From a virus (taxonomy: Duplodnaviria > Heunggongvirae > Uroviricota > Caudoviricetes), in the IMG/VR virus record IMGVR_UViG_2585427763_000009: a stretch of DNA of 23,766 nt. One strand, given 5' to 3'. Made by a program: the position numbers and the translations under genes. A model generated the notes under the pieces. The model was not told where the DNA came from and ran no database searches. It saw only the letters and a list, made by a program, of their open reading frames with translations. Each line of letters starts with the position of its first letter. Within the stretch, counting starts at the first letter, position 1. Below are positions 1,012 to 22,637 of the stretch, one piece after another.

Positions 1012-1050
1012 CTTGGTAGCAAATGGTGAAAATGTAATCTTTATATAGAG

Positions 1051-1753: not shown

Positions 1754-1755
1754 TT

Positions 1756-2423: not shown

Positions 2424-2486
2424 ATAATTAACCAGAGTTTTAAACGCACTTAATCGTGCGGGGCTTCTTTTTGCCTGGAGAAAGTC

Positions 2487-3010: not shown

Positions 3011-3012
3011 TA

Positions 3013-3509: not shown

Positions 3510-5778
3510 AGCCTCCGGGCGTTTTGTCCCTCCGTCAGCATTTGCCGCAGGCACCGGTAAGACGTTTACCGGTGCTTATGCATGGAACGCGCCACGCGAG
3601 GCCGTCGGGCGCGAAAGACCCCTTACACGTGACGAGATGCGTCAGGTGCAAGGTGTTTTATCCACGATTAACCGCCTGCCTTACTTTTTGCGTTCGCTGT
3701 TTACTTCACGCTATGACTACATCCGGCGCAATAAAAGCCCGGTGCACGGGTTTTATTTCCTCACATCCACTTTTCAGCGTCGTTTATGGCCGCGCATTGA
3801 GCGCGTGAATCAGCGCCATGAAATGAACACCGACGCGTCGTTACTGTTTCTGGCAGAGCGTGACCACTATGCGCGCCTGCCGGGAATGAATGACAAGGAG
3901 CTGAAAAAATTTGCCGCCCGTATCTCATCGCAGCTTTTCATGATGTATGAGGAACTCTGCGATGCCTGGGTGGATGCCCATGGCGAAAAAGAATCGCTGT
4001 TTACGGATGAGGCGCAGGCTCACCTGTATGGTCATGTTGCTGGCGCTGCACGTGCTTTCAATATTTCCCCGCTCTACTGGAAAAAATACCGTAAAGGACA
4101 GATGACCACGAGGCAGGCATATTCTGCCATTGCCCGCCTGTTTAACGATGAGTGGTGGACTCATCAGCTTAAAGGCCAGCGTATGCGCTGGCATGAGGCG
4201 TTACTGATTGCTGTCGGGGAGGTCAATAAAGACCGTTCTCCTTATGCCAGTAAACATGCCATTCGTGATGTGCGTGCACGCCGCCAGGCAAATCTGGAAT
4301 TTCTTAAATCGTGTGACCTTGAAAACAGGGAAACCGGCGAGCGCATCGACCTTATCAGTAAGGTGATGGGCAGTATTTCTAATCCTGAAATTCGCCGGAT
4401 GGAGCTGATGAACACCATTGCCGGTATTGAGCGTTACGCCGCAGCAGAGGGTGATGTGGGGATGTTTATCACGCTGACCGCGCCGTCAAAGTATCACCCG
4501 ACACGTCAGGTCGGAAAAGGCGAAAGTAAAACCGTCCAGCTAAATCACGGCTGGAACGATGAGGCATTTAATCCAAAGGATGCGCAGCGTTATCTCTGCC
4601 ATATCTGGAGCCTGATGCGCACGGCATTCAAGGATAATGATTTACAGGTCTACGGTTTGCGTGTCGTCGAGCCACACCACGACGGAACGCCGCACTGGCA
4701 TATGATGCTTTTTTGTAATCCACGCCAGCGTAACCAGATTATTGAAATCATGCGTCGCTATGCGCTCAAAGAGGATGGCGACGAAAGAGGAGCCGCGCGA
4801 AACCGTTTTCAGGCAAAACACCTTAACCGGGGCGGTGCTGCGGGATATATCGCGAAATACATCTCAAAAAACATCGACGGCTATGCACTGGATGGTCAGC
4901 TCGATAATGATACCGGTAGGCCGCTGAAAGACACAGCTGCGGCTGTTACCGCATGGGCGTCAACGTGGCGCATTCCGCAATTTAAAACGGTTGGTCTGCC
5001 GACAATGGGGGCTTACCGTGAACTACGCAAATTGCCTCGCGGCGTCAGCATTGCTGATGAGTTTGACGAGCGCGTCGAGGCTGCACGCGCCGCTGCAGAC
5101 AGTGGTGATTTTGCGTTGTATATCAGCGCGCAGGGCGGGGCAAATGTCCCGCGCGATTGTCAGACTGTCAGGGTCGCCCGTAGCCCGTCGGATGACGTTA
5201 ACGAGTACGAGGAAGAAGTCGAGAGAGTGGTCGGCATTTACGCGCCGCATCTCGGCGCGCGTCATATTCATATCACCAGAACGACGGACTGGCGCATTGT
5301 TCCGAAAGTGCCGGTCGTTGAGCCTTTGACTTTAAAAAGCGGCATCGCCGCGCCTCGGAGTCCTGTCAATAACTGTGGAAAGCTCACCGGTGGTGATACT
5401 TCGTTACCGGCTCCCACACCTTCTGAGCACGCCGCAGCAGTGCTTAATCTGGTTGATGACGGTGTTATTGAATGGAATGACCAGGAGGTCGTGAGGGCGC
5501 TCAGGGGCGCATTAAAACGAGGTCTGAGAAGACCAAACCGTCAGCAAAGAAACGGAAGCCCGTTAAAACAGCATGAAATGGCACCATCGGCCAGACTGAC
5601 CCGGTCAGAACGAATGCAAATTACCCGTATCCGCGTTGACCTTGCTCAGAACGGTATCAGGCCGCAGCGATGGGAGCTTGAGGCGCTGGCGCGTGGAGCA
5701 ATTGTAAATTACGACGGGAAAAAATTCACGTATCCAGTCGCTGATGAGTGGCGGGGATTCTCAGCAGTAATGGAGTGA
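3499..5778 (+). CDS. A: Rolling-circle replication initiator endonuclease gpA (759 aa from ATG 3499)
   Basis: Long ORF; from the internal ATG at 3499 (MAVKASGRF...) it matches the remembered P2 gpA N-terminus and length (~761 aa); contains HUH-type motif (PHWHMMLF) and the AGYIAKYISK tyrosine motif. Confidence 0.88.
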   Translation: MAVKASGRFVPPSAFAAGTGKTFTGAYAWNAPREAVGRERPLTRDEMRQVQGVLSTINRLPYFLRSLFTSRYDYIRRNKSPVHGFYFLTSTFQRRLWPRIERVNQRHEMNTDASLLFLAERDHYARLPGMNDKELKKFAARISSQLFMMYEELCDAWVDAHGEKESLFTDEAQAHLYGHVAGAARAFNISPLYWKKYRKGQMTTRQAYSAIARLFNDEWWTHQLKGQRMRWHEALLIAVGEVNKDRSPYASKHAIRDVRARRQANLEFLKSCDLENRETGERIDLISKVMGSISNPEIRRMELMNTIAGIERYAAAEGDVGMFITLTAPSKYHPTRQVGKGESKTVQLNHGWNDEAFNPKDAQRYLCHIWSLMRTAFKDNDLQVYGLRVVEPHHDGTPHWHMMLFCNPRQRNQIIEIMRRYALKEDGDERGAARNRFQAKHLNRGGAAGYIAKYISKNIDGYALDGQLDNDTGRPLKDTAAAVTAWASTWRIPQFKTVGLPTMGAYRELRKLPRGVSIADEFDERVEAARAAADSGDFALYISAQGGANVPRDCQTVRVARSPSDDVNEYEEEVERVVGIYAPHLGARHIHITRTTDWRIVPKVPVVEPLTLKSGIAAPRSPVNNCGKLTGGDTSLPAPTPSEHAAAVLNLVDDGVIEWNDQEVVRALRGALKRGLRRPNRQQRNGSPLKQHEMAPSARLTRSERMQITRIRVDLAQNGIRPQRWELEALARGAIVNYDGKKFTYPVADEWRGFSAVME

Positions 5779-6107
5779 ACGTCGCCAGTTGCGAAAATTA
5801 TTTACAGGGGGCAGCGTTAAGCATCTAAAGATCTTGTTCTATGATTAGAATGTTTCCTCGTTGCACTCTCGTATAGTTATTTAATGGGAAGATGTACTCT
5901 ATATGTTGTGTTTTGGTGATAAATGAAGCCAAAGGAAGGAGATTTTGCTTGATTGATGGGCGCTCTTTGCTATACACCTTGTATTGAGAAGGAGAAGTAA
6001 TCAAGGATTAAGCTGGCTTTTGTCAAAAATCTGAAAAGCTTTTTTGACTGAATACGATAGCGAGTTGTACTATTTGCGCCCTCAAAAGTAACCGGCGGCT
6101 GGGTAAA

Positions 6108-6482
6108 ATGGGGAAGCAAGGCAAAGGCAAAGGCAACAAAAATCAGGTTAAGGTTACGTGGGCTCAGGCGTGGCGGGATGTAATGATAAGAGCCATGTCT
6201 AATGGTCAGTTGATACCTATTACCATCAGTATTATTTTAATGATTGCTGCATGGAGGTTACCAAAAACAGACTTGTCCAATTTAGCCTTCTCTATTGTTG
6301 ATGGCTTTAAGGAGCATTCCTTGGTTGGTTGGGCTATCTCGGTAATAGTGGGTTTGGCTTGGTCTGCACATGCGCGAATCATGAGGCGCTGTTTTAGTTC
6401 CGAGGCACAGAGAATCGGTAACGAGAAAACAAAGTATCAACAAAGACAGACCACTCAAGCCTTGGGTACAAGTGATAAATAG
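6108..6482 (+). CDS. Small membrane protein, two predicted transmembrane helices (124 aa; true start may be the ATG at 6183)
   Basis: AT-rich ORF; hydrophobic segments LIPITISIILMIAAWRL and LVGWAISVIVGLAWSAHA; first gene after A in the cargo slot; a GGCGGGA Shine-Dalgarno-like run precedes the 6183 ATG. Confidence 0.5.
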   Translation: MGKQGKGKGNKNQVKVTWAQAWRDVMIRAMSNGQLIPITISIILMIAAWRLPKTDLSNLAFSIVDGFKEHSLVGWAISVIVGLAWSAHARIMRRCFSSEAQRIGNEKTKYQQRQTTQALGTSDK

Positions 6483-6502
6483 TTGTTTATTTAGGAGTTA
6501 TT

Positions 6503-7060
6503 ATGCTGACAGTGCTGTTTTATGTGCTGTTGGGTTTAGGCGCAGCACACTTCATTTACGAGCGAATCATTTTGCCGTCCATCCGACTTCATTATAGAAA
6601 CCAATTGTTTGCGCTTCGTGATGTCGCTAGGAGGAAAATCATTGATGGAGGTTCCGATACTTCCATGCAAGCGGCAACACTTGTGCATGACTCATTGAAT
6701 AACGCTATCAATAGATTGCATTTACTCACGTTGCCAAACAAATTTCGTGCTCAAAAGCGTATGGCAGAAAACCATGCAATAAGGCAGAAAATTCGGCGTG
6801 AGATAGATGTTTTCAAACGCTGTGATGATAGAGAAGTTGTTGATGTACTGTTTAAATCCGGTCGGATACTTGAAAATGTACTGTTATTCAATAGCTTAAT
6901 GTTATTGCTTTACATGTTTCCATTTGTCCTTGCTGTATGGTTCTGTGTTAGGGTCATAAAGACAGCAAGTAGTTTAGTACAGTGGGTCAAAGGAAGAGAT
7001 TTAGAGGAAGCTATAATGCTGCTTCCTGATACTCAGGTTGAAAAGGTTGTATACGCATAA
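6503..7060 (+). CDS. Membrane protein with N-terminal and C-terminal hydrophobic helices (185 aa)
   Basis: Starts 20 bp after the previous ORF behind an AGGAG Shine-Dalgarno; hydrophobic N-terminus (LTVLFYVLLGLGAAHFIY) and a C-proximal hydrophobic stretch (LLFNSLMLLLYMFPFVLAVWFCV); followed by a strong terminator. Confidence 0.55.
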   Translation: MLTVLFYVLLGLGAAHFIYERIILPSIRLHYRNQLFALRDVARRKIIDGGSDTSMQAATLVHDSLNNAINRLHLLTLPNKFRAQKRMAENHAIRQKIRREIDVFKRCDDREVVDVLFKSGRILENVLLFNSLMLLLYMFPFVLAVWFCVRVIKTASSLVQWVKGRDLEEAIMLLPDTQVEKVVYA

Positions 7061-7062
7061 AA

Positions 7063-7088
7063 ATCACCCCTTAGGGGGTGATTTTTTT
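7063..7088 (+). terminator. Rho-independent terminator after the two-membrane-protein operon
   Basis: Perfect hairpin ATCACCCC-TTAG-GGGGTGAT followed by TTTTTTT, immediately after the stop at 7060. Confidence 0.65.
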
Positions 7089-7299
7089 ACATGACTTTTG
7101 ATTAGCTGACATTGTAAATCCGCATGTATCAGATGCATTGTTTTGCATGTGGAAATGGGTGTTTTCACTGCCAGCTATCGCTACATGTAGCAAAAACACG
7201 GGCTTAATAAGAAATCATTCTGCCATAAGGCATAACTTCCCCGCGTGCTCAGGTATTGACGTCATAGATATGGATCTTTTTTAATCAAGGTATGGTATT

Positions 7300-8247
7300 A
7301 TGAAGATATTTATTAGTTGGTCAGGTCAGGACAGCCTGGAGATAGCAAAAGTATTACGGGATTGGATACCGAATGTTATTCAAGTAGCTGAGCCGTACGT
7401 ATCAGCGGAAGATATTGATAAAGGCACTCGCTGGGCGACTGATATATCAAAGGAACTTGATGACTCTTCTTATGGGATTATTTGCCTTACAAAAAATAAT
7501 ATTAATGCACCGTGGATAAATTTTGAGGCGGGTGCTTTAGGTAAAAAGGTTGATAAGAGCCGGGTTAGTCCTTTCTTGTTTAAAATTAAACCATCTGAGA
7601 TAACAGGCCCAATATTACAATTCCAGTATACTCGTTCGGATGATAAGAACGATATTTTGAAGTTGATGTTGTCAATAAATAATCAAGCAGGATTTTTGAC
7701 TGAAGAACGCTTAACTAAAGCTTTCGAGCAATGGTGGCCAAGTTTAGAGCGTGAGTTAGATAACATTCAAGATATTAACCCTGTAGATAAAGATTCCACT
7801 AAAAAAACAAAAGGTGATTCGACTTCTGAGATACAAAATCTTTCCAAAATTGTTGAAAGTTTGCTGGATATTAGCCGAACAAATCACCAATTATTGCGTG
7901 ATCCAGCATCATTATTGCCAGAAGAATATGTTAGCAAAATAATAAACAGGGAAGGGCGTAAAGAAACTGTTTTAAAAATTGTAGCTTCTGATTTATTATC
8001 CATGCATCATTCACTAATTCGTGTAAAAAGAAGATTTATTCGTCGTGGTATTGATGAAACATCTAGGAGCGAGTTAATTGAATCATTAAATAAAATGATA
8101 ATGGATTGTTCTAGAGTAATCGCTCACTTAGATAATTATTGTGGGGCTTCATCAAACAATATGTTCAATAGTGCGCTTAGATTGCGGACCAGAAATTTAA
8201 TTGACATGATGGATGAGGAGGATGCAGAACGGGATGAAATGGAATAA
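7300..8247 (+). CDS. TIR-domain protein (N-terminal TIR-like fold ~aa 1-150, C-terminal helical domain of unknown function; 315 aa)
   Basis: N-terminus KIFISWSGQDS (bacterial TIR beta-A strand pattern) and SYGIICLTKNNINAPWINFEAGAL (TIR S-x-W-x-x-x-E pattern, candidate catalytic Glu76 at nt 7525-7527); AT-rich; motif-level recognition only, no search. Confidence 0.6.
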   Translation: MKIFISWSGQDSLEIAKVLRDWIPNVIQVAEPYVSAEDIDKGTRWATDISKELDDSSYGIICLTKNNINAPWINFEAGALGKKVDKSRVSPFLFKIKPSEITGPILQFQYTRSDDKNDILKLMLSINNQAGFLTEERLTKAFEQWWPSLERELDNIQDINPVDKDSTKKTKGDSTSEIQNLSKIVESLLDISRTNHQLLRDPASLLPEEYVSKIINREGRKETVLKIVASDLLSMHHSLIRVKRRFIRRGIDETSRSELIESLNKMIMDCSRVIAHLDNYCGASSNNMFNSALRLRTRNLIDMMDEEDAERDEME

Positions 8248-8791
8248 TCAATTTTGACTAATCATAAATAATTTTGCATATATAAACTTATAATGCCGCA
8301 GCCGCTATTTTTCAGCGGCTGTATATCGCTTATAATGGGTATGTTATTTTTATTTTGATAAAATCATTAAAATTGTCGATGTTATATGAATGCACATGTA
8401 TTATTAATGTTAGAAGATTATGCCTGCTTACGGCTATTGTGCTGAATTCAACTATGAACGCATCAGTATTAAAATCGTTCCATGAAATGTTCTTCGTCTA
8501 CAGCAGATGATGGGCAACGAAAAAATGACGCTGAGTGAGTTGGTCGGGGAGAATTGTTAGAGGTATTTATGGAGTGGTTTAATAATATCGGTCAATCCTG
8601 AGTTGCAGCATCACATAGACGATAGGGAATCTCTCCAGTCGTTCTGGAATGGCAGCGTTGAACAACAAGCACAGCGAGGCGTTAGATGCCCATCAGATTG
8701 ACACAGAGGGTTTATGAATCGCTGGGATTTACTTAGTTTGAAAAATAATATATTTATATGTTTTTGTATTGTGTTTGTTAAGGAGTTTGGA

Positions 8792-8998
8792 TTGAAAAGA
8801 AAACTGATTTGTGTTATGGCTTTTTGGGGGGCGTTGCTGGCTGGTTGTAATGAGAGTAATAAAAAAGAAGTTGAGGGTTGTATTGAAAGAGGTGTCCAAT
8901 ATTTTATAGAGATTGGTTCTTACCCTAAATTAAGTGATGGGCGTGATGCTGTAAAAGTTGCTACTGAACGTTGTAATAGAACAATAACGGCTTTCTGA
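8792..8998 (+). CDS. Small predicted lipoprotein (69 aa from TTG 8792; longer frame opens at ATG 8714)
   Basis: AAGGAG Shine-Dalgarno 6 nt upstream of TTG 8792; N-terminus KRKLICVMAFWGALLAGC is a classic lipoprotein signal with lipobox LAGC; mature part has 3 Cys. The 8714 start would give an atypically long leader. Confidence 0.5.
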   Translation: MKRKLICVMAFWGALLAGCNESNKKEVEGCIERGVQYFIEIGSYPKLSDGRDAVKVATERCNRTITAF

Positions 8999-9000
8999 TA

Positions 9001-9918
9001 ATGGATTATACGAGCTATATAATAGGACAGCTTCAGGTTGAGGATATTATTGATGCAATTAAAGGCGTTAATAATACTAATGTCATAAAAGATTATGTGC
9101 TGCCTGTAGTATTACCAATTATATCTTCTGTGCTGAGTTACTTTATTGCAACTAGGTTGTTTTATCGGCAGGAGGACCTTAAAGCACAAAGAAGAAAGGT
9201 AAGCGTTGTAAATAAATGTATTTATGACTACTTTTCTGCAATGACAACGTTGTTGCAAATTAAAGGGAATTATTATGGTGGGGTAAGTATAAGTGAAAAT
9301 CCTATCGAGAGGGCTTTAGCTTTTCCTGTTGTGGTTTTTTCTGGTGCTCCTCTATCATCAGATTTAAGTGAGTTGGCCTGTATATTGAGTCAAAAGGGAG
9401 TAGGGAATAATAGAGAGCCAGCAAAGACTACTAACTGGGGGGATGCTTTTGCTGTTAGTGATATAGCAAGAAGGTTTAACAGCCTATTGGCTGCATTAAA
9501 TGTTAGGAATGATTTTGATGACACCTATAGAGGAATGATTATTGAATCAACAGGTTCACCTTTGCCTACGATGCGTTTTAAAAATGATGATATTGTTAAT
9601 GCTATAGGTAGTAATAAGGCAGCTTATTACATTGATATTACTGAGCAAATAATGATTATGATAGATGTTTTGTTGCTTGATATTAATCTGTTGCTCAAAG
9701 AGTTGCCATTGTATGCTGAATCGCTGTTTGACAAAAGAGTAATGCAAGAAGATTCAGGGATTCTTAAATTCAATGATTTGCACGAACGTTTTCCTCTACT
9801 TATGAAACCTGTAACGCCACCTTCGATTAAACTCATGTCTGATTATTTGGGGTACAGTGAAGATGAGATCTTACGACGCTATCCATACCCGTTCTTTAAT
9901 ATGCATGATTGTGAATGA
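9001..9918 (+). CDS. Hypothetical membrane-anchored protein (305 aa), translationally coupled to the upstream lipoprotein gene
   Basis: ATG 2 nt after the lipoprotein stop (TGATAATG); one hydrophobic helix (~aa 32-54, VLPVVLPIISSVLSYFIATRLF); AT-rich; no motif I recognise. Confidence 0.55.
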   Translation: MDYTSYIIGQLQVEDIIDAIKGVNNTNVIKDYVLPVVLPIISSVLSYFIATRLFYRQEDLKAQRRKVSVVNKCIYDYFSAMTTLLQIKGNYYGGVSISENPIERALAFPVVVFSGAPLSSDLSELACILSQKGVGNNREPAKTTNWGDAFAVSDIARRFNSLLAALNVRNDFDDTYRGMIIESTGSPLPTMRFKNDDIVNAIGSNKAAYYIDITEQIMIMIDVLLLDINLLLKELPLYAESLFDKRVMQEDSGILKFNDLHERFPLLMKPVTPPSIKLMSDYLGYSEDEILRRYPYPFFNMHDCE

Positions 9919-10022
9919 ATGTGCATATGTCAGAAGCCGTTTTTATTGTCAGTTATCGTCAGTGCTGGCGCGCTCTTGGAGTGTTCATGCAACTGCATTA
10001 AAACCGCCCCACGAAGCGGGCG

Positions 10023-10041
10023 GGCGAGGCGGGGAAAGCAC
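10023..10041. other. Candidate cos cohesive-end site (GGCGAGGCGGGGAAAGCAC)
   Basis: 19-mer matching my memory of the P2 cohesive end, in a GC-rich segment just beyond the 3' end of Q where P2 cos lies; the exact P2 sequence is recalled, not verified. Confidence 0.5.
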
Positions 10042-10171
10042 TGCGCGCTGGCGGTGGTGATGATTGTCTGAGCGCGTCGTGATGGCGTTTAGATTGTGCG
10101 CCGGGGCGTTGGTGTGTCTGCGGGGTGTTTTGTACAGTGGCGAGCGTGTGAGGGCGTGATGACGGGGGTGT

Positions 10172-10193
10172 AAAAAAGCCGCCCGCAGGCGGC
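10172..10193 (-). terminator. Candidate terminator downstream of Q (reverse strand)
   Basis: Hairpin GCCGCC-CGCA-GGCGGC preceded on the + strand by AAAAAA (a T-run on the reverse strand), 6 nt past the Q stop. Confidence 0.4.
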
Positions 10194-10198
10194 GATGT

Positions 10199-11233
10199 TC
10201 AGCCGTTGTCAGTGTCCAGTGAGTAGTTTTTAAAGCGGATGACCTCCTGACCGAGCCAGCCGTTTATTTCCCGAATCCTGTCCTGTAACGGGATAAGTTC
10301 ATTGCGGACAAAGACCTTTGCCACTTTCTCAATATCGCCCAGCGACCCGACGTTTTCCGGCTTGCCACCCATCAACTGAAAGGGGATGCGGTGCGCGTCC
10401 AGCAGGTCAGCGGCGCTGGCTTTTTTGATATTAAAAAAATCGTCCTTCGTGGCCACTTCACTGAGCGGGATAATTTTAATGCCGTCGGCTTTTCCCTGTG
10501 GGGCATAGAGAAACAGGTTTTTAAAGTTATTGCGGCCTTTCGACTTCACCATGTTTTCGCGGAGCATTTCGATATCGTTGCGATCCTGCACGGCATCAGT
10601 GACGTACATGATGTATCCGGCATGTGCGCCGTTTTCGTAATACTTGCGGCGGAACAGCGTGGCCGACTCATTCAGCCAGGCAGAGTTAAGGGCGCTGAGA
10701 TATTCCGGCAGACCGTACAGCTCCTGATTAATATCCGGCTCCAGCAGGTGAAACACGGAGCCGGGCGCGAAAGGTGTCGGCTCGTTGAAGGACGGCACCC
10801 ACCAGTAAACATCCTCCTCCACGCCACGGCGGGTATATTTTGCCGGTGAGGTTTCCAGTCTGATGACCTTACCGGTGGTGCTGTAACGCTTTTCCAGAAA
10901 CGCATTACCGAATACCAGAAAATCCAGCACAAAGCGGCTGAAATCCTGCTGAGAAAGCCACGGGTGTGGGATAAACGTTGAGGCCAGAATGTTACGTTTG
11001 ACGTAAATCGGTGAGCTGTGATGCACGGCAGCACGCAGGCTTTTTGCCAGACCGGTAAAGCTGACTGGTGGCTCATACCATCTGCCGTTACTGATGCACT
11101 CGACGTAATCCAGAATGTCACGGCGGTCGAGTACCGGCACCGGCTCACCAAAGGTGAATGCCTCCATTTTCGGGGCGCTGGCGGTCATTTTTTTTGCCGC
11201 AGGTTGCGGTGTTTTCCCTTTTTTCTTGCTCAT
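10199..11233 (-). CDS. Q: Capsid portal protein gpQ (344 aa)
   Basis: 344-aa reverse-strand ORF; N-terminus MSKKKGKTPQPAAKKMTASAPKMEAFTFGEP matches remembered P2 gpQ; correct size and position next to cos. Confidence 0.88.
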   Translation of the reverse strand: MSKKKGKTPQPAAKKMTASAPKMEAFTFGEPVPVLDRRDILDYVECISNGRWYEPPVSFTGLAKSLRAAVHHSSPIYVKRNILASTFIPHPWLSQQDFSRFVLDFLVFGNAFLEKRYSTTGKVIRLETSPAKYTRRGVEEDVYWWVPSFNEPTPFAPGSVFHLLEPDINQELYGLPEYLSALNSAWLNESATLFRRKYYENGAHAGYIMYVTDAVQDRNDIEMLRENMVKSKGRNNFKNLFLYAPQGKADGIKIIPLSEVATKDDFFNIKKASAADLLDAHRIPFQLMGGKPENVGSLGDIEKVAKVFVRNELIPLQDRIREINGWLGQEVIRFKNYSLDTDNG

Positions 11234-12042
11234 CAGTAAAACTCCAGAATGGTGGATGTCAGCGGGGTGCTGATACCGGCGGTGAGTGGCTCATTTAACA
11301 GGGCGTGCATGGTCGCCCAGGCGAGGTCGGCGTGGCTGGCTTCCTCGCTACGGCTGGCCTCATAGGTGGCGCTGCGTCCGCTGCTGGTCATGGTCTTGCG
11401 GATAGCCATGAACGAGCTGGTGATGTCGGTGGCGCTGCGTCCGCTGCTGGTCATGGTCTTGCGGATAGCCATGAACGAGCTGGTGATGTCGGTGGCGCTG
11501 CGTCCGCTGCTGGTCATGGTCTTGCGGATAGCCATGAACGAGCTGGTGATGTCGGTGGCGCTGCGTCCGCTGCTGGTCATGGTCTTGCGGATAGCCATGA
11601 ACGAGCTGGTGATGTCGGTGGCGCTGCGTCCGCTGCTGGTCATGGTCTTGCGGATAGCCATGAACGAGCTGGTGATGTCGGTGGCGCTGCGTCCGCTGCT
11701 GGTCATGGTCTTGCGGATAGCCATGAACGAGCTGGTGATGTCGGTGGCGCTGACGTCATATTCCAGACAGCCACGGCGGATGACGTCTTTTGCCTTGAGC
11801 ACCATTGCGGTTTTCATTTCCGGCGTGTAGCGGATATCGCGTGCGGCGGGATAGAACGAGCGCACGAGCTGGAACACGCCGACACCGAGGCCGGTGGCAT
11901 CAATTCCGATGTATTCGACGTTGTATTTTTCGGTGAGTTTGCGGATGGATTCCGCCTGAGTGGCAAAGTCCATGCCTTTCCACTGGTGACGCTCAAGTAT
12001 TCTGAATTTACCTCCGGCCACCACCGGCGGTGCCAGCACCAC
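11233..12042 (-). pseudogene. P: 3' remnant of terminase ATPase/nuclease subunit gene P: 5'-truncated, carrying an expanded in-frame tandem repeat
   Basis: Reverse-strand frame ends 1 nt into the Q start (P2 P-Q arrangement) and contains a terminase nuclease-like motif (YIGIDATGLGVGV), but only ~270 codons remain versus ~590 in P2 gpP; the upstream partner on the + strand is lysozyme K, not O/N/M. Confidence 0.7.
11371..11748. repeat. Perfect tandem repeat, 6 copies of a 63-bp unit (in frame; encodes SATDITSSFMAIRKTMTSSGR x6 on the reverse strand)
   Basis: Unit GCTGCGTCCGCTGCTGGTCATGGTCTTGCGGATAGCCATGAACGAGCTGGTGATGTCGGTGGC starts at 11371, 11434, 11497, 11560, 11623 and 11686 with no mismatches; phase is ambiguous by about 6 nt because the flanks share GGTGGC / GCTG. 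Confidence 0.9.
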
Positions 12043-12058
12043 GCATCCGGCGCTGGCC

Positions 12059-12502
12059 GTGTCCGAAGGGACGGCGAATCATCCGCTGACGAAAAACCGG
12101 GGCTATGACGTGATAGTCACCGGACTGGACGGAAAGCCGGAAATTTTCACCGACTACAGTGACCACCCGTTCGCACATGGTCGACCGGCGAAGGTGTTTA
12201 ACCGTCGCGGTGAAAAATCCACGGCCTCCGGTCGCTATCAGCAGCTTTACCTGTTCTGGCCGCATTACCGCAAACAGCTTGCCCTGCCGGATTTCAGTCC
12301 GTTGTCACAGGACAGGCTCGCCATTCAGTTGATCCGCGAACGCGGTGCACTGGATGACATCCGGGCGGGACGCATTGAGCGCGCCATTTCACGCTGTCGC
12401 AATATCTGGGCGTCCCTGCCGGGTGCCGGTTACGGTCAGCGTGAGCATCCACTGGAAAAACTGGTCACCGTCTGGCGTACCGCCGGCGGCGTACCGGCTT
12501 AA
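12059..12502 (+). pseudogene. K: Endolysin (lysozyme) gpK lacking its first ~18 codons; a GTG at 12059 could still start a 147-aa product
   Basis: Translation SEGTANHPLTKNRGYDVIVTGLDGKPEIFTDYSDHPFAHGRPAKVFNRRGEKSTASGRYQQLYLFWPHYRK matches remembered P2 gpK from about residue 19 to the end; no in-frame ATG upstream; holin gene Y is absent. Confidence 0.7.
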
Positions 12503-12516
12503 ACGGAGTAAACACC

Positions 12517-12942
12517 ATGAAGAAATTATCCCTTTCACTGATGCTGAATGTGCCGCTGGCGCTGATGCTGGCACTGTCCCTGATTTACCCGCAGAGCGTG
12601 GCCGTCAGTTTTGTCGCCGCCTGGGCGATTCTGGCGACGGTTATCTGTGTGGTTGCCGGTGGTGTCGGCGTGTATGCCACTGAGTATGTGCTGGAACGCT
12701 ACGGGCGGGAGCTGCCGCCGGAATCGCTGGCCGTGAAGATTGTCACGTCGCTGTTTTTGCAGCCGGTGCCGTGGCGCAGACGGGCAGTAGCTCTGGTGGT
12801 GATGGTGGCGACGTTTATCTCGCTGGTCGCTGCCGGGTGGATTTTTACCGCGCTGATTTATCTTGTGGCGTCGCTGTTTTTCCGGCTGATACGTAAAGCC
12901 TGCCGTCAGCGTTTTGAGGGGCGGGAACCATGTCAAAGCTGA
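12517..12942 (+). CDS. lysA: Lysis regulatory membrane protein LysA (141 aa)
   Basis: 141-aa multi-pass hydrophobic protein directly after K, GGAG Shine-Dalgarno; same size and position as P2 lysA. Confidence 0.78.
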   Translation: MKKLSLSLMLNVPLALMLALSLIYPQSVAVSFVAAWAILATVICVVAGGVGVYATEYVLERYGRELPPESLAVKIVTSLFLQPVPWRRRAVALVVMVATFISLVAAGWIFTALIYLVASLFFRLIRKACRQRFEGREPCQS

Positions 12943-13355
12943 TGATTGTGCTGGTTGTGCTGTTATCGCTGGCGGTGGCGGGGCTGTTTCTGGTGAAGCA
13001 TGAAAACGCCAGCCTGCGCGCCTCGCTGGACAGGGCGAACAACGTCGCCAGTGAACAGCAGACGACCATCACCATGCTGCAAAATCAGCTTCATGTTGCC
13101 ATCACCAGGGCAGACAAAAACGAGCTGGCGCAGGTGGCACTGCGTCAGGAACTGGAGAACGCCGCGAAGCGTGAAGCACAGCGCGAGAAAACCATCACGA
13201 GGTTACTTAATGAAAACGAAGATTTTCGCCGCTGGTATGGCGCTGACCTGCCTGATGCTGTGCGCCGGTTGCACCAGCGCCCCGCCTGCACCGACGCCAG
13301 TGATTGTCGCCAACGCCTGCCCGAAAGTGAGCCTTTGCCCGATGCCGGGCAGTGA
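12930..13355 (+). CDS. lysB: Inner-membrane spanin LysB (Rz-like, 141 aa)
   Basis: N-terminal membrane anchor then coiled-coil-like sequence; same size and position as P2 lysB; the lysC frame is embedded in it. Confidence 0.78.
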   Translation: MSKLMIVLVVLLSLAVAGLFLVKHENASLRASLDRANNVASEQQTTITMLQNQLHVAITRADKNELAQVALRQELENAAKREAQREKTITRLLNENEDFRRWYGADLPDAVRRLHQRPACTDASDCRQRLPESEPLPDAGQ

Positions 13356-13500
13356 CCCGGAGACGAACGGCGATTTAAGTGCCGATATCCGGCAGCTTGA
13401 GAACGCGCTGGCACGTTGTGCCAGCCAGGTAAAAATGATTAAACACTGTCAGGACGAAAACGATGCTCAAACCCGACAGCCTGCGCAGGGCGCTGACTGA
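13210..13500 (+). CDS. lysC: Outer-membrane lipoprotein spanin LysC (Rz1-like, 96 aa), embedded in the +1 frame of lysB
   Basis: ATG at 13210; lipoprotein signal MKTKIFAAGMALTCLMLCAGC (lipobox LCAGC); proline-rich mature region; embedded spanin arrangement as in P2. Confidence 0.7.
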   Translation: MKTKIFAAGMALTCLMLCAGCTSAPPAPTPVIVANACPKVSLCPMPGSDPETNGDLSADIRQLENALARCASQVKMIKHCQDENDAQTRQPAQGAD

Positions 13501-13930
13501 TGCCGTCACGGTGCTGAAAACTAACCCCGATATGCTGCGGATATTCGTGGATAACGGGAGTATTGCCTCCACACTGGCGGCGTCGTTGTCATTCGAAAAG
13601 CGTTACACGCTCAATGTCATTGTGACCGACTTTACCGGTGATTTTGACCTGCTCATCGTGCCGGTGCTGGCGTGGCTGCGGGAAAATCAGCCCGACATCA
13701 TGACCACCGACGAAGGCCAGAAAAAGGGCTTCACGTTTTATGCAGACATCAACAATGACAGCAGCTTTGATATCAGTATCAGCCTGATGCTGACCGAGCG
13801 CACGCTGGTCAGTGAGGTTGACGGTGCGCTGCATGTGAAGAATATCCCGGAACCTCCGCCGCCGGAGCCAGTCAATCGCCCGATGGAGCTTTATATCAAT
13901 GGTGAACTGGTGAGCAAGTGGGATGAATGA
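13463..13930 (+). CDS. R: Tail completion protein gpR (155 aa)
   Basis: 155 aa, same size and order as P2 gpR. Confidence 0.82.
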   Translation: MLKPDSLRRALTDAVTVLKTNPDMLRIFVDNGSIASTLAASLSFEKRYTLNVIVTDFTGDFDLLIVPVLAWLRENQPDIMTTDEGQKKGFTFYADINNDSSFDISISLMLTERTLVSEVDGALHVKNIPEPPPPEPVNRPMELYINGELVSKWDE

Positions 13931-14375
13931 GTTTAAGCGTTTTGAAGACCGACTGACCGGACTGATTGAATCGCTGTCACCGTCTGGGCGTCGGCGACTG
14001 AGTGCAGAACTGGCGAAACGTCTGCGGCAGAGTCAGCAGCGTCGGGTGATGGCACAGAAAGCTCCGGACGGCACACCCTACGCACCACGCCAGCAGCAGA
14101 GCGCCAGAAAAAAGACCGGTCGCGTTAAGCGAAAAATGTTTGCGAAACTTATCACCAGTCGTTTTTTGCATATCCGCGCCAGCCCTGAACAGGCATCAAT
14201 GGAGTTTTACGGCGGGAAGGCACCGAAAATCGCCAGTGTGCATCAGTTCGGTCTGTCGGAAGAAACCCGGAAAGACGGTAAGAAAATTGATTATCCGGCG
14301 CGTCCTCTGCTCGGCTTTACCGGTGAGGATGTGCAGATGATTGAAGAGATTATCCTGGCTCACCTTGAGCGTTAG
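13923..14375 (+). CDS. S: Tail completion protein gpS (150 aa)
   Basis: 150 aa, same size and order as P2 gpS; start overlaps the R stop. Confidence 0.82.
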   Translation: MNEFKRFEDRLTGLIESLSPSGRRRLSAELAKRLRQSQQRRVMAQKAPDGTPYAPRQQQSARKKTGRVKRKMFAKLITSRFLHIRASPEQASMEFYGGKAPKIASVHQFGLSEETRKDGKKIDYPARPLLGFTGEDVQMIEEIILAHLER

Positions 14376-14406
14376 TTTTATCCAGACAGAGGCTGATGCG
14401 CAATTA

Positions 14407-14439
14407 AACATTGAGCGGCCATGCTGGTCGCTCAATGTT
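14407..14439. terminator. Hairpin between convergent genes (S on +, cargo gene on -); candidate bidirectional terminator
   Basis: Perfect 11-bp inverted repeat AACATTGAGCG / CGCTCAATGTT around an 11-nt loop, in the 71-bp gap between two convergent stop codons; flanking T/A runs are weak. Confidence 0.4.
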
Positions 14440-14446
14440 TAGAGGT

Positions 14447-15232
14447 TTATGAGTGATTTTTATTTGATGCTTTGTATTCTAAAACCTTCTTATTGGCGTA
14501 AAAGAATTTTGTATATGACAGGAATATAACCAGACCTGAAGTGAAATAGACGAGGGATAGTATTAATAATGCTTTTTTGCGACTGTTATTATCTTTAATC
14601 TCCAGGCTTAACCATTCGGAGTCCTCCTCGTTTAGCTGTAAGAGCTTATTGCAGGCGATTTCAGGAAGTGTGTCTTTTATAAATACGTTTTGCAGTCTCT
14701 TGCAATCGGCAAGGCTATAAGTTTTATTAAATTCAACTGCTTTATTTTTGAAGGATAAAAGAACTTTGTCACTATAAACATAGTACATCATGTTTTTATA
14801 TGGTATGCCTATGGCATCCCTTACTATAACGGATTGTTCGTTGTGTATGTAACATGCGAGGAGAATGTAAAAAATACTGGCCAGAATTACAATTATTGTT
14901 TTAATTATGTGTGGTGGTTTTGTTATGTCACCCCAGATGCGAGTAAGGAAAAAATACGATGTTTTTAGTTTTCCATCAATCAGTCCCTGCTGTATCATTC
15001 TCACATTTTCAATGCCTGATACATTGATTCCGTTAATTATTTTAAATAGTTGAATGTCGCGCCACTCGCGGTCAAGTCTTTTTAATTTTTTGTCTGAATA
15101 TCCAAAATTGAAATAATGTGCAATAAGCCTCATAAGGTTACTTTTACCAAAGCTAAAAAATGCTAATACTGCAAAGCTACAAAGGAAAAAAACGATTAGC
15201 CCCCACACATTAGTCACATTATAGCTGACCAT
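14447..15232 (-). CDS. Hypothetical membrane protein (261 aa, about 3 transmembrane helices), moron in the S/V slot
   Basis: Strongly AT-rich reverse-strand ORF between S and V where P2 carries the non-essential orf30; hydrophobic helices at the N-terminus, middle (IIKTIIVILASIFYILLACYI) and C-terminus (ALLILSLVYFTSGLVIFL). Confidence 0.6.
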   Translation of the reverse strand: MVSYNVTNVWGLIVFFLCSFAVLAFFSFGKSNLMRLIAHYFNFGYSDKKLKRLDREWRDIQLFKIINGINVSGIENVRMIQQGLIDGKLKTSYFFLTRIWGDITKPPHIIKTIIVILASIFYILLACYIHNEQSVIVRDAIGIPYKNMMYYVYSDKVLLSFKNKAVEFNKTYSLADCKRLQNVFIKDTLPEIACNKLLQLNEEDSEWLSLEIKDNNSRKKALLILSLVYFTSGLVIFLSYTKFFYANKKVLEYKASNKNHS

Positions 15233-15315
15233 TACGCTCTCCTTGAATGTTGTCTGGTAGTTCTACAAATGAATCCAGATAGCATAACTTTTATATATTG
15301 TGCAATCTCACATGC

Positions 15316-15951
15316 ATGAACACTCTCGCAAATATTCAGGAACTCGCGCGCGCACTGCGCAACATGATTCGCACCGGCATTATCGTCGAAACCGACCTTA
15401 ACGCCGGTCGCTGCCGCGTGCAGACCGGCGGCATGTGCACCGACTGGCTTCAGTGGCTGACCCATCGCGCCGGTCGTTCGCGCACATGGTGGGCACCTTC
15501 CGTGGGGGAACAGGTGCTGATTCTGTCCGTGGGCGGTGAACTCGACACGGCGTTTGTTCTGCCGGGGATTTATTCCGGCGATAATCCCGCGCCGTCTGCG
15601 TCGGCGGATGCCCTGCATATCCGTTTCCCTGACGGGGCGGTGATTGAGTATGAACCCGAAACCAGTGCGCTCACGGTAAGCGGAATTAAAACGGCCAGCG
15701 TGACGGCTTCCGGTTCTGTTACTGCCACTGTGCCGGTGGTCATGGTGAAAGCGTCAACCCGCATCACCCTGGACACACCGGAGGTGGTCTGCACCAACAG
15801 GCTGATTACCGGCACGCTGGAAGTGCAGAAGGGCGGGACGATGCGCGGCAACATTGAACACACCGGCGGTGAACTCTCATCAAACGGTAAGGTACTGCAT
15901 ACCCATAAACACCCCGGCGACAGCGGCGGCACAACCGGGAGTCCTCTATGA
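15316..15951 (+). CDS. V: Baseplate spike/assembly protein gpV (211 aa from ATG 15316)
   Basis: Matches P2 gpV size and order; start set at MNTLANIQ; stop overlaps the W start. Confidence 0.85.
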   Translation: MNTLANIQELARALRNMIRTGIIVETDLNAGRCRVQTGGMCTDWLQWLTHRAGRSRTWWAPSVGEQVLILSVGGELDTAFVLPGIYSGDNPAPSASADALHIRFPDGAVIEYEPETSALTVSGIKTASVTASGSVTATVPVVMVKASTRITLDTPEVVCTNRLITGTLEVQKGGTMRGNIEHTGGELSSNGKVLHTHKHPGDSGGTTGSPL

Positions 15952-16295
15952 CAGCGCGTTATCTCGGAATGAATCGCAGTGATGGCCTGACGGTCACTGA
16001 CCTTGAGCATATCAGCCAGAGTATCGGCGATATCCTGCGCACACCGGTCGGCTCACGGGTGATGCGCCGTGATTACGGCTCGTTGCTGGCGTCAATGATT
16101 GACCAGCCGCAGACCCCGGCGCTTGAGTTGCAGATTAAGGTCGCCTGTTACATGGCGGTGCTGAAATGGGAACCCCGCGTCACCCTGTCATCCGTCACCA
16201 CGGCGCGCAGTTTTGACGGGCGAATGACGGTCACGTTAACCGGTCAGCACAACGACACCGGTCAGCCACTTTCGTTAACCATCCCTGTGAGTTGA
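15948..16295 (+). CDS. W: Baseplate wedge protein gpW (115 aa)
   Basis: 115 aa, same size and order as P2 gpW. Confidence 0.85.
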   Translation: MTARYLGMNRSDGLTVTDLEHISQSIGDILRTPVGSRVMRRDYGSLLASMIDQPQTPALELQIKVACYMAVLKWEPRVTLSSVTTARSFDGRMTVTLTGQHNDTGQPLSLTIPVS

Positions 16296-16299
16296 AACC

Positions 16300-17208
16300 A
16301 TGCCGATTATCGACCTGAACCAGCTACCCGCACCGGATGTGGTCGAGGAGCTGGACTTTGAAACCATTCTTGCCGAACGCAAGGCGACACTGATTTCCCT
16401 TTACCCGGAAGACCAGCAGGAGGTGGTCGCCCGTACCCTGACGCTGGAATCGGAGCCTCTCGTCAAACTGCTGGAAGAAAATGCTTATCGTGAGCTTATC
16501 TGGCGTCAGCGTGTGAATGAGGCCGCACGGGCGGTGATGCTGGCCTGTGCCGCCGGTAATGACCTTGATGTGATTGGTGCCAATTACAACACCACACGCC
16601 TGATTATCATCCCGGCAGATGATTCGACCATCCCGCCGACACCGGCAGTGATGGAATCTGACACCGATTATCGTCTGCGTATTCAGCAGGCGTTTGAAGG
16701 TTTAAGCGTTGCCGGGTCGGTGGGAGCCTATCAGTATCATGGTCGCAGTGCCGACGGGCGTGTCGCGGATATCTCTGTCACCAGTCCGTCTCCGGCCTGT
16801 GTCACTATCTCCGTGCTGTCCCGAGAAAATAACGGTGTCGCATCCGAAGACCTGCTGGCTGTGGTGCGTAACGCTCTTAATGGCGAGGACGTCAGGCCGG
16901 TGGCTGACCGTGTGACCGTGCAGTCTGCCGCCATTGTTGAATACCAGATAAACGCCACGCTGTATCTTTACCCTGGTCCAGAAAGCGAACCCATCCGCGC
17001 CGCCGCCGTGAAAAAACTGGAAGCGTACATCACGGCACAGCACCGGCTGGGGCGCGACATCCGTCTGTCTGCCATTTATGCCGCTTTGCATGTGGAAGGC
17101 GTGCAGCGTGTCGAACTGACTGCACCGCTGGCTGACATCGTGCTCAACAGTACGCAGGCGTCTTTCTGCACCGAATACAGCGTCGTGACCGGAGGCTCGG
17201 ATGAGTGA
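16300..17208 (+). CDS. J: Baseplate assembly protein gpJ (302 aa)
   Basis: 302 aa, same size and order as P2 gpJ. Confidence 0.85.
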   Translation: MPIIDLNQLPAPDVVEELDFETILAERKATLISLYPEDQQEVVARTLTLESEPLVKLLEENAYRELIWRQRVNEAARAVMLACAAGNDLDVIGANYNTTRLIIIPADDSTIPPTPAVMESDTDYRLRIQQAFEGLSVAGSVGAYQYHGRSADGRVADISVTSPSPACVTISVLSRENNGVASEDLLAVVRNALNGEDVRPVADRVTVQSAAIVEYQINATLYLYPGPESEPIRAAAVKKLEAYITAQHRLGRDIRLSAIYAALHVEGVQRVELTAPLADIVLNSTQASFCTEYSVVTGGSDE

Positions 17209-17731
17209 TTCGCGACTGCTGCCGACCGGCTCATCACCGCTTGAGGTCGCCGCCGCAAAAGCCTGTGCGGAAATTGAAAAAACACCGGTCAGTATTCGTG
17301 AGCTGTGGAACCCGGACTCCTGTCCGGCAAATCTGCTGCCGTGGCTGGCGTGGGCGTTTTCGGTCGACAGGTGGGATGAAAAGTGGCCGGAAGCGACAAA
17401 ACGCGCCGTTATCCGCGATGCCTATTTCATCCACTGTCATAAAGGCACTATCGGCGCAATCCGACGCGTGGTGGAGCCGCTCGGCTATCTCATCAACGTG
17501 ACGGAGTGGTGGGAAAACAGTGACCCGCCCGGCACCTTCCGGCTTGATATTGGTGTACTGGAAAGCGGTATCACAGAGGCAATGTATCAGGAAATGGAAC
17601 GGCTGATTGCCGATGCCAAACCTGCAAGCCGCCACCTTATTGGCCTGAACATTACCCGGGACATTCCCGGCTATCTGTTCGCCGGTGGTGTGGCTTACGA
17701 CGGCGATGTAATTACGGTTTACCCCGGATAA
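17201..17731 (+). CDS. I: Baseplate/tail protein gpI (176 aa)
   Basis: 176 aa, same size and order as P2 gpI; start overlaps the J stop. Confidence 0.85.
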   Translation: MSDSRLLPTGSSPLEVAAAKACAEIEKTPVSIRELWNPDSCPANLLPWLAWAFSVDRWDEKWPEATKRAVIRDAYFIHCHKGTIGAIRRVVEPLGYLINVTEWWENSDPPGTFRLDIGVLESGITEAMYQEMERLIADAKPASRHLIGLNITRDIPGYLFAGGVAYDGDVITVYPG

Positions 17732-17741
17732 GTGAGGAATA

Positions 17742-19787
17742 ATGAGCATAAAATTCAGAACCGTTATCACCACTGCCGGTGCAGCAAAGCTGGCAGCGGC
17801 AACCGCGCCGGGAGGGCGGAAGGTCAACATTACCACGATGGCCGTCGGGGATGGCGGTGGTAAATTGCCTGTCCCGGATGCCGGACAGACCGGGCTTATC
17901 CATGAAGTCTGGCGACATGCGCTGAACAAAATCAGCCAGGACAAACGAAACAGTAATTATATTATCGCCGAGCTGGTTATTCCGCCGGAGGTGGGCGGTT
18001 TCTGGATGCGTGAGCTTGGCCTGTACGATGATGCGGGAACATTAATTGCCGTGGCGAACATGGCCGAAAGTTATAAGCCAGCTCTTGCCGAAGGCTCAGG
18101 GCGTTCGCAGACCTGTCGCATGGTCATCATCGTCAGCAGTGTGGCCTCAGTGGAGCTGACCATTGACACCACAACGGTGATGGCGACTCAGGATTACGTT
18201 GATGACAAAATTGCAGAGCATGAACAGTCACGACGTCACCAGGACGCCTCGCTGACCGCAAAAGGTTTTACTCAGTTAAGCAATGCGACCAACAGCACGT
18301 CTGAAACACTGGCCGCAACGCCGAAAGCGGTTAAGGCCGCATATGACCTTGCTAACGGGAAATATACCGCACAGGACGCTACCACAGCGCGAAAAGGTCT
18401 TGTCCAGCTAAGTAGTGCGACCAACAGCATATCTGAAACGCTCGCCGCAACACCAAAAGCCGTTAAGACGGTAATGGATGAAACGAACAAGAAAGCGCCA
18501 TTAAACAGCCCTGCACTGACCGGAACGCCAACGACGCCAACTGCGCGACAGGGAACGAATAATACTCAGATCGCAAACACGGCTTTCGTTATGGCCGCGA
18601 TTGCCGCCCTTGTAGACTCGTCGCCTGACGCACTGAATACGCTGAACGAGCTGGCGGCGGCGCTGGGCAATGACCCGAATTTTGCTACCACCATGACTAA
18701 TGCGCTTGCGGGTAAGCAACCGAAAGATGCCACTTTGACGGCGCTGGCGGGGCTTGCTACTGCGGCAGACAGGTTTCCGTATTTTACGGGGAATGATGTT
18801 GCCAGCCTGGCGACCCTGACAAAAGTCGGGCGGGATATTCTGGCTAAATCGACCGTTGCCGCTGTTATCGAATATCTCGGTTTACAGGAAACGGTAAACC
18901 GAGCCGGGAACGCCGTGCAAAAAAATGGCGATACTTTGTCCGGCGGGCTTACTTTTGAAAACGACTCAATCCTTGCCTGGATTCGAAATACTGACTGGGC
19001 GAAGATTGGATTTAAAAATGATGCCGATGGTGACACTGATTCATATATGTGGTTTGAAACAGGTGACAACGGCAATGAATATTTCAAATGGAGAAGTCGC
19101 CAGAGCACCACAACAAAAGACCTGATGAATCTTAAATGGGATGCTCTGTATGTTCTTGTTAAAGCCCTTTTCAGCAGTGAAGTAAAAATATCTACAGTCA
19201 ATGCACTGAGGATATTTAATTCATCTTTTGGGGCTATTTTTCGCCGTTCTGAAGAAAACCTGTATATCATTCCTACACGAGAAAATGAGGGTGAAAATGG
19301 AGATATTGGGCCATTAAGGCCATTCGGCATCAACTTAAGAACAGGAGTTGTGTCTGTTGGTAATGGTGCCAGGATTGATGGCGGGCTGGCACTTGGCACG
19401 AATAACGCGTTGGGTGGGAACTCTATTGTTCTTGGTGATAACGACACCGGATTTAAACAAAATGGCGATGGTAATCTGGATGTTTATGCTAATAACGTCC
19501 ATGTTATGCGCTTTGTTTCCGGAAGCATTCAAAGTAATAAGACCATAAATATTACGGGGCGTGTTAATCCCTCGGATTACGGTAACTTTGATTCCCGCTA
19601 TGTGAGAGATATCAGACTTGGCACACGTGTTGTCCAGACCATGCAGAAAGGGGTGATGTATGAGAAAGCAGGGCACGTAATTACCGGGCTTGGTATTGTC
19701 GGTGAAGTCGATGGTGATGACCCCGCAGTATTCAGGCCAATACAAAAATACATCAATGGCACATGGTATAACGTCGCACAGGTGTAA
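17742..19787 (+). CDS. H: Tail fiber protein gpH (681 aa) with an internal ~25-aa repeat and a lower-GC C-terminal receptor-binding region
   Basis: N-terminus MSIKFRTVITTAGAAKLAAATAPGG matches remembered P2 gpH; tail-fiber repeat copies ...QLSNATNSTSETLAATPKAVKAAYD... and ...QLSSATNSISETLAATPKAVKTVMD... Confidence 0.85.
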   Translation: MSIKFRTVITTAGAAKLAAATAPGGRKVNITTMAVGDGGGKLPVPDAGQTGLIHEVWRHALNKISQDKRNSNYIIAELVIPPEVGGFWMRELGLYDDAGTLIAVANMAESYKPALAEGSGRSQTCRMVIIVSSVASVELTIDTTTVMATQDYVDDKIAEHEQSRRHQDASLTAKGFTQLSNATNSTSETLAATPKAVKAAYDLANGKYTAQDATTARKGLVQLSSATNSISETLAATPKAVKTVMDETNKKAPLNSPALTGTPTTPTARQGTNNTQIANTAFVMAAIAALVDSSPDALNTLNELAAALGNDPNFATTMTNALAGKQPKDATLTALAGLATAADRFPYFTGNDVASLATLTKVGRDILAKSTVAAVIEYLGLQETVNRAGNAVQKNGDTLSGGLTFENDSILAWIRNTDWAKIGFKNDADGDTDSYMWFETGDNGNEYFKWRSRQSTTTKDLMNLKWDALYVLVKALFSSEVKISTVNALRIFNSSFGAIFRRSEENLYIIPTRENEGENGDIGPLRPFGINLRTGVVSVGNGARIDGGLALGTNNALGGNSIVLGDNDTGFKQNGDGNLDVYANNVHVMRFVSGSIQSNKTINITGRVNPSDYGNFDSRYVRDIRLGTRVVQTMQKGVMYEKAGHVITGLGIVGEVDGDDPAVFRPIQKYINGTWYNVAQV

Positions 19788-22327: not shown

Positions 22328-22408
22328 TGTAATTTATTTATCTGTTTGTTTTATAAGGATAAATTAACTAAAATGGCACCATCAACAAAACCGGAAGAGG
22401 TGCTCGCG

Positions 22409-22627: not shown

Positions 22628-22637
22628 TCACAAAAAT

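Follow-up and report, generated by a model that had tools for sequence, protein, structure and literature searches.

Does the point at which a terminase gene and an endolysin gene meet in this viral DNA mark a deletion from a P2-like prophage, or is it the native organization of another phage lineage? Inspection of the open reading frames had placed the meeting of a minus-strand P-like frame with a plus-strand K-like frame within positions 12000-12060 of the window, i.e., the whole stretch of 23,766 nucleotides that was analyzed. We have compared the window with the genome of P2 (NC_001895) and with its closest relatives. The alignments indicate that a single deletion of 5,319 bp very probably produced this site, in a P2-like prophage that is integrated in the E. 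coli chromosome between cpxP and fieF.

The P-K junction in a P2-like prophage

The window is a piece of the draft assembly GCA_000713035.1 of E. coli 6-319-05_S3_C2 (contig JORG01000123.1); in reverse complement, locus L010 is a perfect substring match from window position 1233. Comparison with P2 by blastn reveals a P2-like prophage in the integrated permutation between cpxP and fieF. The homology is colinear at the nucleotide level across the early, late and cos regions, in blocks of 94-97% identity covering P2 26290-30315, 1-1728, 7044-14158 and 23191-24342, and this places the element among the P2-like phages (Peduovirus). Its int and repressor are diverged from those of P2. The early operon (window 1755-5780 = P2 26290-30315, 96.9% by blastn) is followed by non-P2 cargo, cos, Q, a partial P, the genes K to G, a second cargo region, a stump of FI, a partial D and ogr, and window 21564-22717, running from the FI/D scar through ogr, corresponds to P2 23191-24342 (blastn). 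The ogr gene adjoins fieF, as in other E. coli, lying just before it, and fieF forms the right end of the window (22600-23766). All 5,426 complete E. coli genomes have a match to this end, in 5,427 records altogether, and identity reaches 99% or more in 5,227 of them. The duplicated att core beside the int and ogr ends marks an integrated element: the 47-bp core (window 22739-22785) recurs with 100% identity as attL of the D7 prophage (D7 locus 338-384), and the element's own attL falls just outside the window. The position of cos follows from the match of window 9994-10041 to P2 33546-33593 and of the sequence from window 10023 on to that from P2 1 on, with cosL and cosR as annotated in NC_001895.

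Outside its deletions the element follows the P2 gene order, with 95-97% nucleotide identity over the shared genes, and has cos and the late promoters pV and pF in common with P2. It differs from P2 in lacking P2 1729-7047 (5′ P, pP/pO, O, N, M, L, X, Y and 5′ K) and roughly P2 17757-23190 (FI, FII, E, T, U and 5′ D), in carrying other cargo at the old/tin and Z/fun hotspots, and in the expansion of a 63-bp array in the stump of P. The closest complete relative is a prophage of E. coli D7 of 34.3 kb, which occupies the same attachment site between cpxP and fieF and is 98.8% identical to the window over 1-11441 and ~97% over the rest. It carries the full order Q-P-O-N-M-L-X-Y-K, the order that had been cited as that of P2.

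Several minor differences were noted in the remainder of the window. An Orf30-like gene of 261 amino acids (window 14447-15232, minus strand) is present as in P2 and is absent from the otherwise closer D7 prophage. Toward the 3′ end of the tail-fiber gene H (window 19166-19581) identity to P2 falls from 97% to 81% or less, and G is only 87% identical to its P2 counterpart, the 3′ end of H and G together being the usual mosaic host-range region. H encodes 681 amino acids in the window, against 669 in the prophages of D7 and GCA_036913275.1. At the Z/fun hotspot there is an ORF of 197 amino acids (window 20540-21133, plus strand) with no match in Pfam, NCBIfam or PADLOC.

The features around the junction are as follows.

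10023-10041, strand not given: cos site, the 19-nt cohesive end at the joined cosR/cosL of the integrated prophage
10199-11233, minus strand: portal gene Q, an intact ORF of 344 amino acids, Pfam Phage_portal at 5.9e-14, colinear with P2 187-1221
11233-12055, minus strand: P′, the surviving 3′ part of the terminase large-subunit gene P, corresponding to P2 1221-1728 (the C-terminal 169 codons plus the tandem array)
12052-12055, strand not given: deletion junction 1, a 4-bp microhomology GCTG in the three-way alignment with P2 and D7
12056-12502, plus strand: K′, the endolysin gene K minus its first 17 codons, RBS and promoter pO, from comparison of the translation with gpK

Alignment with a complete P2 genome, which had been proposed as a means of mapping the breakpoint and finding any microhomology, located the breakpoint to the base. 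Except where a repeat within it has expanded, window 10023-12055 aligns with P2 1-1728 at 95-97% identity, with blastn matches of window 10023-11441 to P2 1-1430 and of window 11680-12055 to P2 1353-1728 (97.3%). On the other side, window 12052-19166 aligns without gaps with P2 7044-14158 at 97.2% (blastn). The tetranucleotide GCTG is present at P2 1725-1728 and at P2 7044-7047, and a single copy is left at window 12052-12055. In the three-way alignment the P side reads CATCCGGCGCTG up to the breakpoint and TCGCCACGG beyond it, the K side reads CTCGACATGCTG followed by GCCGTGTCC, and the window reads CATCCGGCGCTGGCCGTGTCC across the junction. P2 1728 is now joined to 7048, and the absent segment, P2 1729-7047, amounts to 5,319 bp, so that an earlier estimate of roughly 4 kb was too small. 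The same breakpoints are obtained against the intact D7 prophage, where D7 locus 12252 is joined to 17568.

Both breakpoints are intragenic, at codon 422 of P and codon 18 of K. The minus-strand and plus-strand frames do meet within 12000-12060, with zero spacer by blastn against P2. The two sides meet seamlessly at a short direct repeat that occurs once at each parental site, and the junction shows neither filler bases nor foreign DNA, target-site duplication or any remnant of an IS. Because each flank comprises thousands of bases at ~97% nucleotide identity, the junction is not a chance resemblance.

Losses at the junction

Six genes have been lost whole: those for the scaffold (O), the major capsid protein (N), the small terminase subunit (M) and head completion (L), the tail gene X and the holin gene Y. 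Neither the ORF list nor blastn against P2 gave any homologue of O, N, M, L, X or Y anywhere in the window, in keeping with the prior suggestion that this capsid module was missing between Q/P and K. From P (P2 1221-2993) 1,265 bp have gone, comprising codons 1-421 or 71% of the gene, and with them the ATPase domain in its entirety and the nuclease domain's first strand. K (P2 6997-7494) has lost its first 51 bp. The proposed fusion of a terminase remnant to a 5′-truncated endolysin is confirmed, with the C-terminal 169 codons of P kept and 17 codons of K removed. pP and pO are divergent Ogr-dependent late promoters. The deleted interval includes pP, the promoter of Q (start P2 3016), the shared activator site (3057-3087) and pO (start P2 3127), as given in the P2 feature table. 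The sequence-only reading had thus listed the capsid, packaging and holin genes correctly, and had omitted most of P and both of these promoters.

What remains of P has neither the native start codon nor the ATPase domain. The product of P′ matches gpP 427-547 at 99% and gpP 514-590 at 90% identity; its Pfam match is to Terminase_6C only, from model position 21 on, the N-terminal edge of the nuclease domain having gone. The frame runs 9 codons past the junction to a stop, and the first possible start is a GTG at 12042. Read from this codon the product would have 269 amino acids, a form that is not on record, while gene callers take the second GTG to give 268 amino acids. In the public annotation P′ (window 11233-12042, minus strand) appears as a 'terminase-like family protein' (KEM26521.1) and not as a pseudogene.

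K′ begins at Ala18, and its longest ORF starts at the GTG at 12059, corresponding to Val19 of gpK, and encodes 147 amino acids. In lambda lysozyme the catalytic residue is Glu19, within a WSEGT motif. Full-length gpK is homologous to this enzyme (PDB 1AM7/3D3D, E ~4e-44), and the residues lost from K′ precede the SEGT motif. By this alignment the equivalent of lambda Glu19, gpK Glu21, is kept, and the N-terminal helix (residues 1-17) is lost. K′ matches nothing in Pfam or NCBIfam, and its homology comes from direct alignment to gpK. On the plus strand, promoter prediction over 9900-12700 gave no sigma-70-like site, and the GTG at 12059 has no Shine-Dalgarno-like sequence ahead of it. The public annotation of K′ (window 12059-12502, plus strand) is 'lysozyme' (KEJ73954.1 and others), again not a pseudogene.

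Downstream of K′ lies the rest of the former O operon.

12517-12942, plus strand: lysA, Pfam LysA, DNZ54_00345 family
12930-13355, plus strand: lysB, a gene call colinear with P2
within 13237-13500, plus strand: lysC, Pfam LysC
13463-13930, plus strand: R, Pfam P2_Phage_GpR
13923-14375, plus strand: S, Pfam Phage_tail_S

The ORFs of these five genes (12517-14375) are intact. Since pP and pO are deleted, Q and the K′-lysA-lysB-lysC-R-S set have lost their only known promoters. Judged from the P2 promoter map, expression of Q, lysA, lysB, lysC, R and S has probably been lost, and read-through from the upstream plus-strand cargo or early operons, across the antisense Q and P′, may take place.

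The prophage has a second scar, near its right end.

21564-21567, strand not given: deletion junction 2, joining P2 17756 to 23191 (D7 27203 to 32638), with a microhomology of 3-4 bp, (T)AGC

At this junction the first 105 bp of the sheath gene FI run out of frame into the 3′ part of D. Some 5.4 kb is missing, comprising most of FI, all of FII, E, T and U, and one third of D at its 5′ end. The resulting region contains an ORF of 286 amino acids (21467-22327) that matches in Pfam only model positions 106-304 of Phage_GPD. Together the two deletions remove the heads, packaging, holin, endolysin function and tail shaft, and spare int, repressor, cox, B, A, cos, ogr, the pV operon (V-W-J-I-H-G) and the cargo.

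For an inducible, plaque-forming P2-like prophage we took the essential head, packaging, tail and lysis functions to be Q, P, O, N, M, L, X, Y, K, R, S, V, W, J, I, H, G, FI, FII, E, T, U and D. Of these the window lacks O, N, M, L, X, Y, FII, E, T and U, and has P, K, FI and D in truncated form. Such an element would make no capsids, package no DNA and produce neither holin nor functional endolysin, i.e., it is predicted to be a grounded, non-lethal prophage. The inability to make capsids or package DNA, proposed earlier from the reading frames, is supported by the alignments to P2 and to the intact D7 sibling prophage. The finding serves chiefly annotation and record-keeping: the element should be classed as a defective prophage, and the records of P′ and K′ marked as pseudogenes.

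Retained are the immunity, integration and replication genes, cos, the baseplate and fiber genes, and an anti-phage cargo (2TM-1TM-TIR). The cargo occupies the old/tin hotspot between A and cos, where three genes (6108-8247, plus strand) are identified by PADLOC as 2TM-TIR, 1TM-TIR and TIR-TM, with E values of 1e-58 to 1e-118. Two ORFs of 94 and 305 amino acids that follow them (8714-9918) have no family match. The block is also present in the intact D7 prophage. Defective P2-like elements are known to keep near-identical defense genes while their core genes decay (PMC13586616), and grounded prophages in general have been reviewed (PMC6379469). The present element resembles the grounded or cryptic P2-like prophages of this literature (PMC6379469; PMC13586616) in that core morphogenesis and mobility genes are inactivated with the defense cargo intact and almost the same as in intact elements, although its particular pair of breakpoints is undescribed as far as we have searched. 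The deletion is ordinary prophage decay of a well-known kind, and opens no new question. It does provide an example resolved to the base, in which two microhomology deletions excise precisely the head/lysis and tail blocks, leaving the defense cargo in place.

Origin and inheritance of the scar

The 4-bp microhomology at junction 1, taken with the 3-4 bp at junction 2, suggests the signature of short-homology illegitimate recombination, probably through replication slippage or break-joining. By our own calculation, microhomology of at least 4 bp is expected at ~1.6% of random junctions, using the distribution (k+1)(1/4)^k(3/4)^2. We infer microhomology-mediated illegitimate recombination in a lysogen. 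Recombination of a RecA-independent type, or replication slippage, would have occurred between the GCTG in P and the GCTG in K, most likely in the chromosome of a lysogen, followed by vertical inheritance; the lysogen is favored because propagation as a phage requires head genes, which such a genome lacks. Chi sites are absent from the neighborhood of junction 1 and of the array, the only ones being at 22989 and 23001 in fieF.

A more complex history is rather unlikely, though it is the most probable of the alternatives considered. Several events might have been involved, either insertion of an IS or cargo followed by an adjacent deletion, or nested deletions, or the deletion might have been fixed by selection against lethal lysis or morphogenesis genes. 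Nested or successive deletions, or an IS-mediated adjacent deletion with subsequent loss of the IS, would leave the same scar, yet the seamless join at the 4-bp repeat, with none of the traces of insertion sought there, speaks for a single step. Selection would be in keeping with the sparing of the anti-phage cargo, immunity and integration genes by both deletions, and with the defective P2-like elements with conserved defense genes described in PMC13586616; however, the carriers of the junction are ~99.96% identical to one another, which is too little variation for testing. No carrier with just one of the two deletions was found.

The complex history also draws some support from the many P-truncating deletions and rearrangements, some with inversions, in other P2-like prophages of E. 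coli. P is often hit in decayed elements of this type, with left breakpoints at P2 1502, 1744, 1746 and ~1810. P2 1502 is joined to 6941 in YJR_complete and to 7492 in PEC301; other assemblies join 1746 to ~9139 and 1744 to 7797. Two assemblies have a P that breaks off near P2 1810 and runs into unrelated DNA, and some assemblies carry frameshifts. The prophages of YJR_complete, PEC301, GCA_036913275.1, SRR34868166 and others are like that of the window in having a 3′ stump of P beside Q, P joined to a point in the O operon, and no head module. Their breakpoints are nevertheless independent, with left ends at 1502, 1744, 1746 or ~1810 compared with 1728 and right ends at 6941, 7492, 7797 or ~9139 compared with 7048. 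An apparent hotspot of left breakpoints at P2 1728-1810 was discounted as an ascertainment effect of selecting for the 163-amino-acid P′ product. YJR_complete (L003 4515) and PEC301 (L004 4515) are unrelated strains with an identical left breakpoint at P2 1502, the sequence preceding it being GGCGTGTA, and in YJR_complete an inverted sheath fragment directly follows K.

We sought other carriers of junction 1 by the 147-amino-acid K′ product together with a DNA 36-mer spanning the junction, since the 163-amino-acid form of P′ is not specific to the deletion. The K′ product is recorded on 41 contigs in 60 index blocks, the sources including E. coli 6-175-07_S3_C1 and C2. Five loci that were fetched (GCA_907163395.1, three Logan re-assemblies and one ENA metagenome scaffold) have the identical 36-mer, and over as much as 20 kb, second deletion included, they match the window at ~99.96% identity. 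GCA_002512175.1 agrees with them in these respects. The carriers differ by a few substitutions in 20 kb. Because the junction is identical and the identity ~99.96% in independent assemblies, the scar is a stable and vertically inherited feature of one E. coli clone that has been sampled repeatedly, and the 36-mer can serve as a clone-specific marker of that lineage.

The same data make it very improbable that junction 1 is an assembly artifact, whether through chimeric joining or through collapse of a region when short reads were assembled into a draft. The source (JORG01000123.1) is indeed a draft, and the assembled copy number of the neighboring array differs among sibling isolates, so that the assembly is not fully reliable here; but the identical junction occurs in at least eight independent datasets (NCBI isolates, Logan and an ENA metagenome), which various submitters produced by various pipelines, on contigs of 100-157 kb that run on into chromosomal genes.

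We also asked where the junction occurs among complete sequences, counting it as spanned where one place covered 80% of a 411-bp query centered on it. It was spanned in none of 5,426 complete E. coli genomes and in none of 50,697 phage records, and both halves of the query were present, apart, in 1,535 of the complete E. coli genomes. A search of genome_contigs with the 36-mer (no matches) was uninformative, as that set holds one genome per species and a single E. coli representative. The defective P2-related prophage of E. coli B was rejected as a source, as no complete E. coli genome spans the junction.

That the arrangement is instead the native gene order of a distinct P2-related lineage, satellite-like or tailocin-like, that never had a head module is hardly credible: the element is superficially helper-dependent-like in retaining cos, Q, int, cox, A, B, ogr, baseplate and fiber genes, but its flanks are both ~97% identical to P2 in nucleotide sequence with the breakpoints inside ORFs, its stumps have no start codons or promoters, its nearest relatives at the same attachment site carry the complete module, the join is found in no phage record, and the sheath, tube and tape-measure genes of a tailocin are missing too. 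The possibility that this was the native organization of another lineage, recognized when the deletion was first proposed, is thus not borne out, and deletion is the reading that we retain. Two particular forms of the alternative were considered and set aside. A P4-like or other helper-dependent satellite is at odds with the lack of P4-type genes, with the finding that all genes outside the hotspots are P2 orthologues at ~97%, and with the intragenic breakpoints. For an R-type tailocin, the sheath gene (all but 105 bp), the tube gene, E, T and U are deleted, the holin is absent and the endolysin is truncated.

A tandem array in the terminase stump

The internal repeat expansion seen in the alignment of P′ is a tandem array, a feature of which the earlier reading had made no mention.

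11365-11757, strand not given: tandem array of period 63, 6.2 copies, 99% matches (TRF)

It is the sole tandem repeat that TRF finds in the whole window. Six units are identical and in frame, 21 codons each, encoding SATDITSSFMAIRKTMTSSGR six times. P2 and D7 each have one 63-bp unit; in P2 a native direct repeat of 10 bp, GGTGGCGCTG, flanks it on either side, at P2 1353 and 1416. This repeat could have been the substrate for a first duplication by slippage or unequal exchange, after which the 63-bp copies would have expanded further.

Variants of P′ with 1 to 7 units were looked up by exact sequence. The 6-unit form was found only in 6-319-05_S3_C2, the source of the window, the 5-unit form only in 6-319-05_S3_C1 and the 2-unit form only in 6-319-05_S3_C3; forms with 3, 4 or 7 units are not on record by this look-up. 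P′ with one unit is common, but its 163-amino-acid product is also called in frameshifted P and in unrelated deletions. The DNA of the contigs shows 5 and 2 units, with the same junction, in 6-319-05_S3_C1 and C3, respectively. These three isolates are colonies from one stool sample, and among the fetched loci carrying junction 1 more than one unit is seen in these colonies only. Because the other fetched carriers have a single unit, the expansion of the array postdates the deletion, within the sub-lineage of the three colonies.

The differing counts of 2, 5 and 6 may reflect real instability within the host, or the uncertainty of short-read assembly. The variable array is the sole unexpected, or mildly unusual, feature of the locus, and a small curiosity if real. 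We raise tentatively a broader possibility, namely that the doubly deleted element is a stabilized, non-lethal defense island (the 2TM-1TM-TIR cargo, immunity and possibly the baseplate and fiber genes) kept under selection by a successful clone, and that the 63-bp array is a hypermutable minisatellite changing among colonies within one host. If truly unstable, the array would be a natural marker of the rate of within-host recombination in a neutral pseudogene. The array also creates a spurious antisense ORF of 267 amino acids at 11305-12108.
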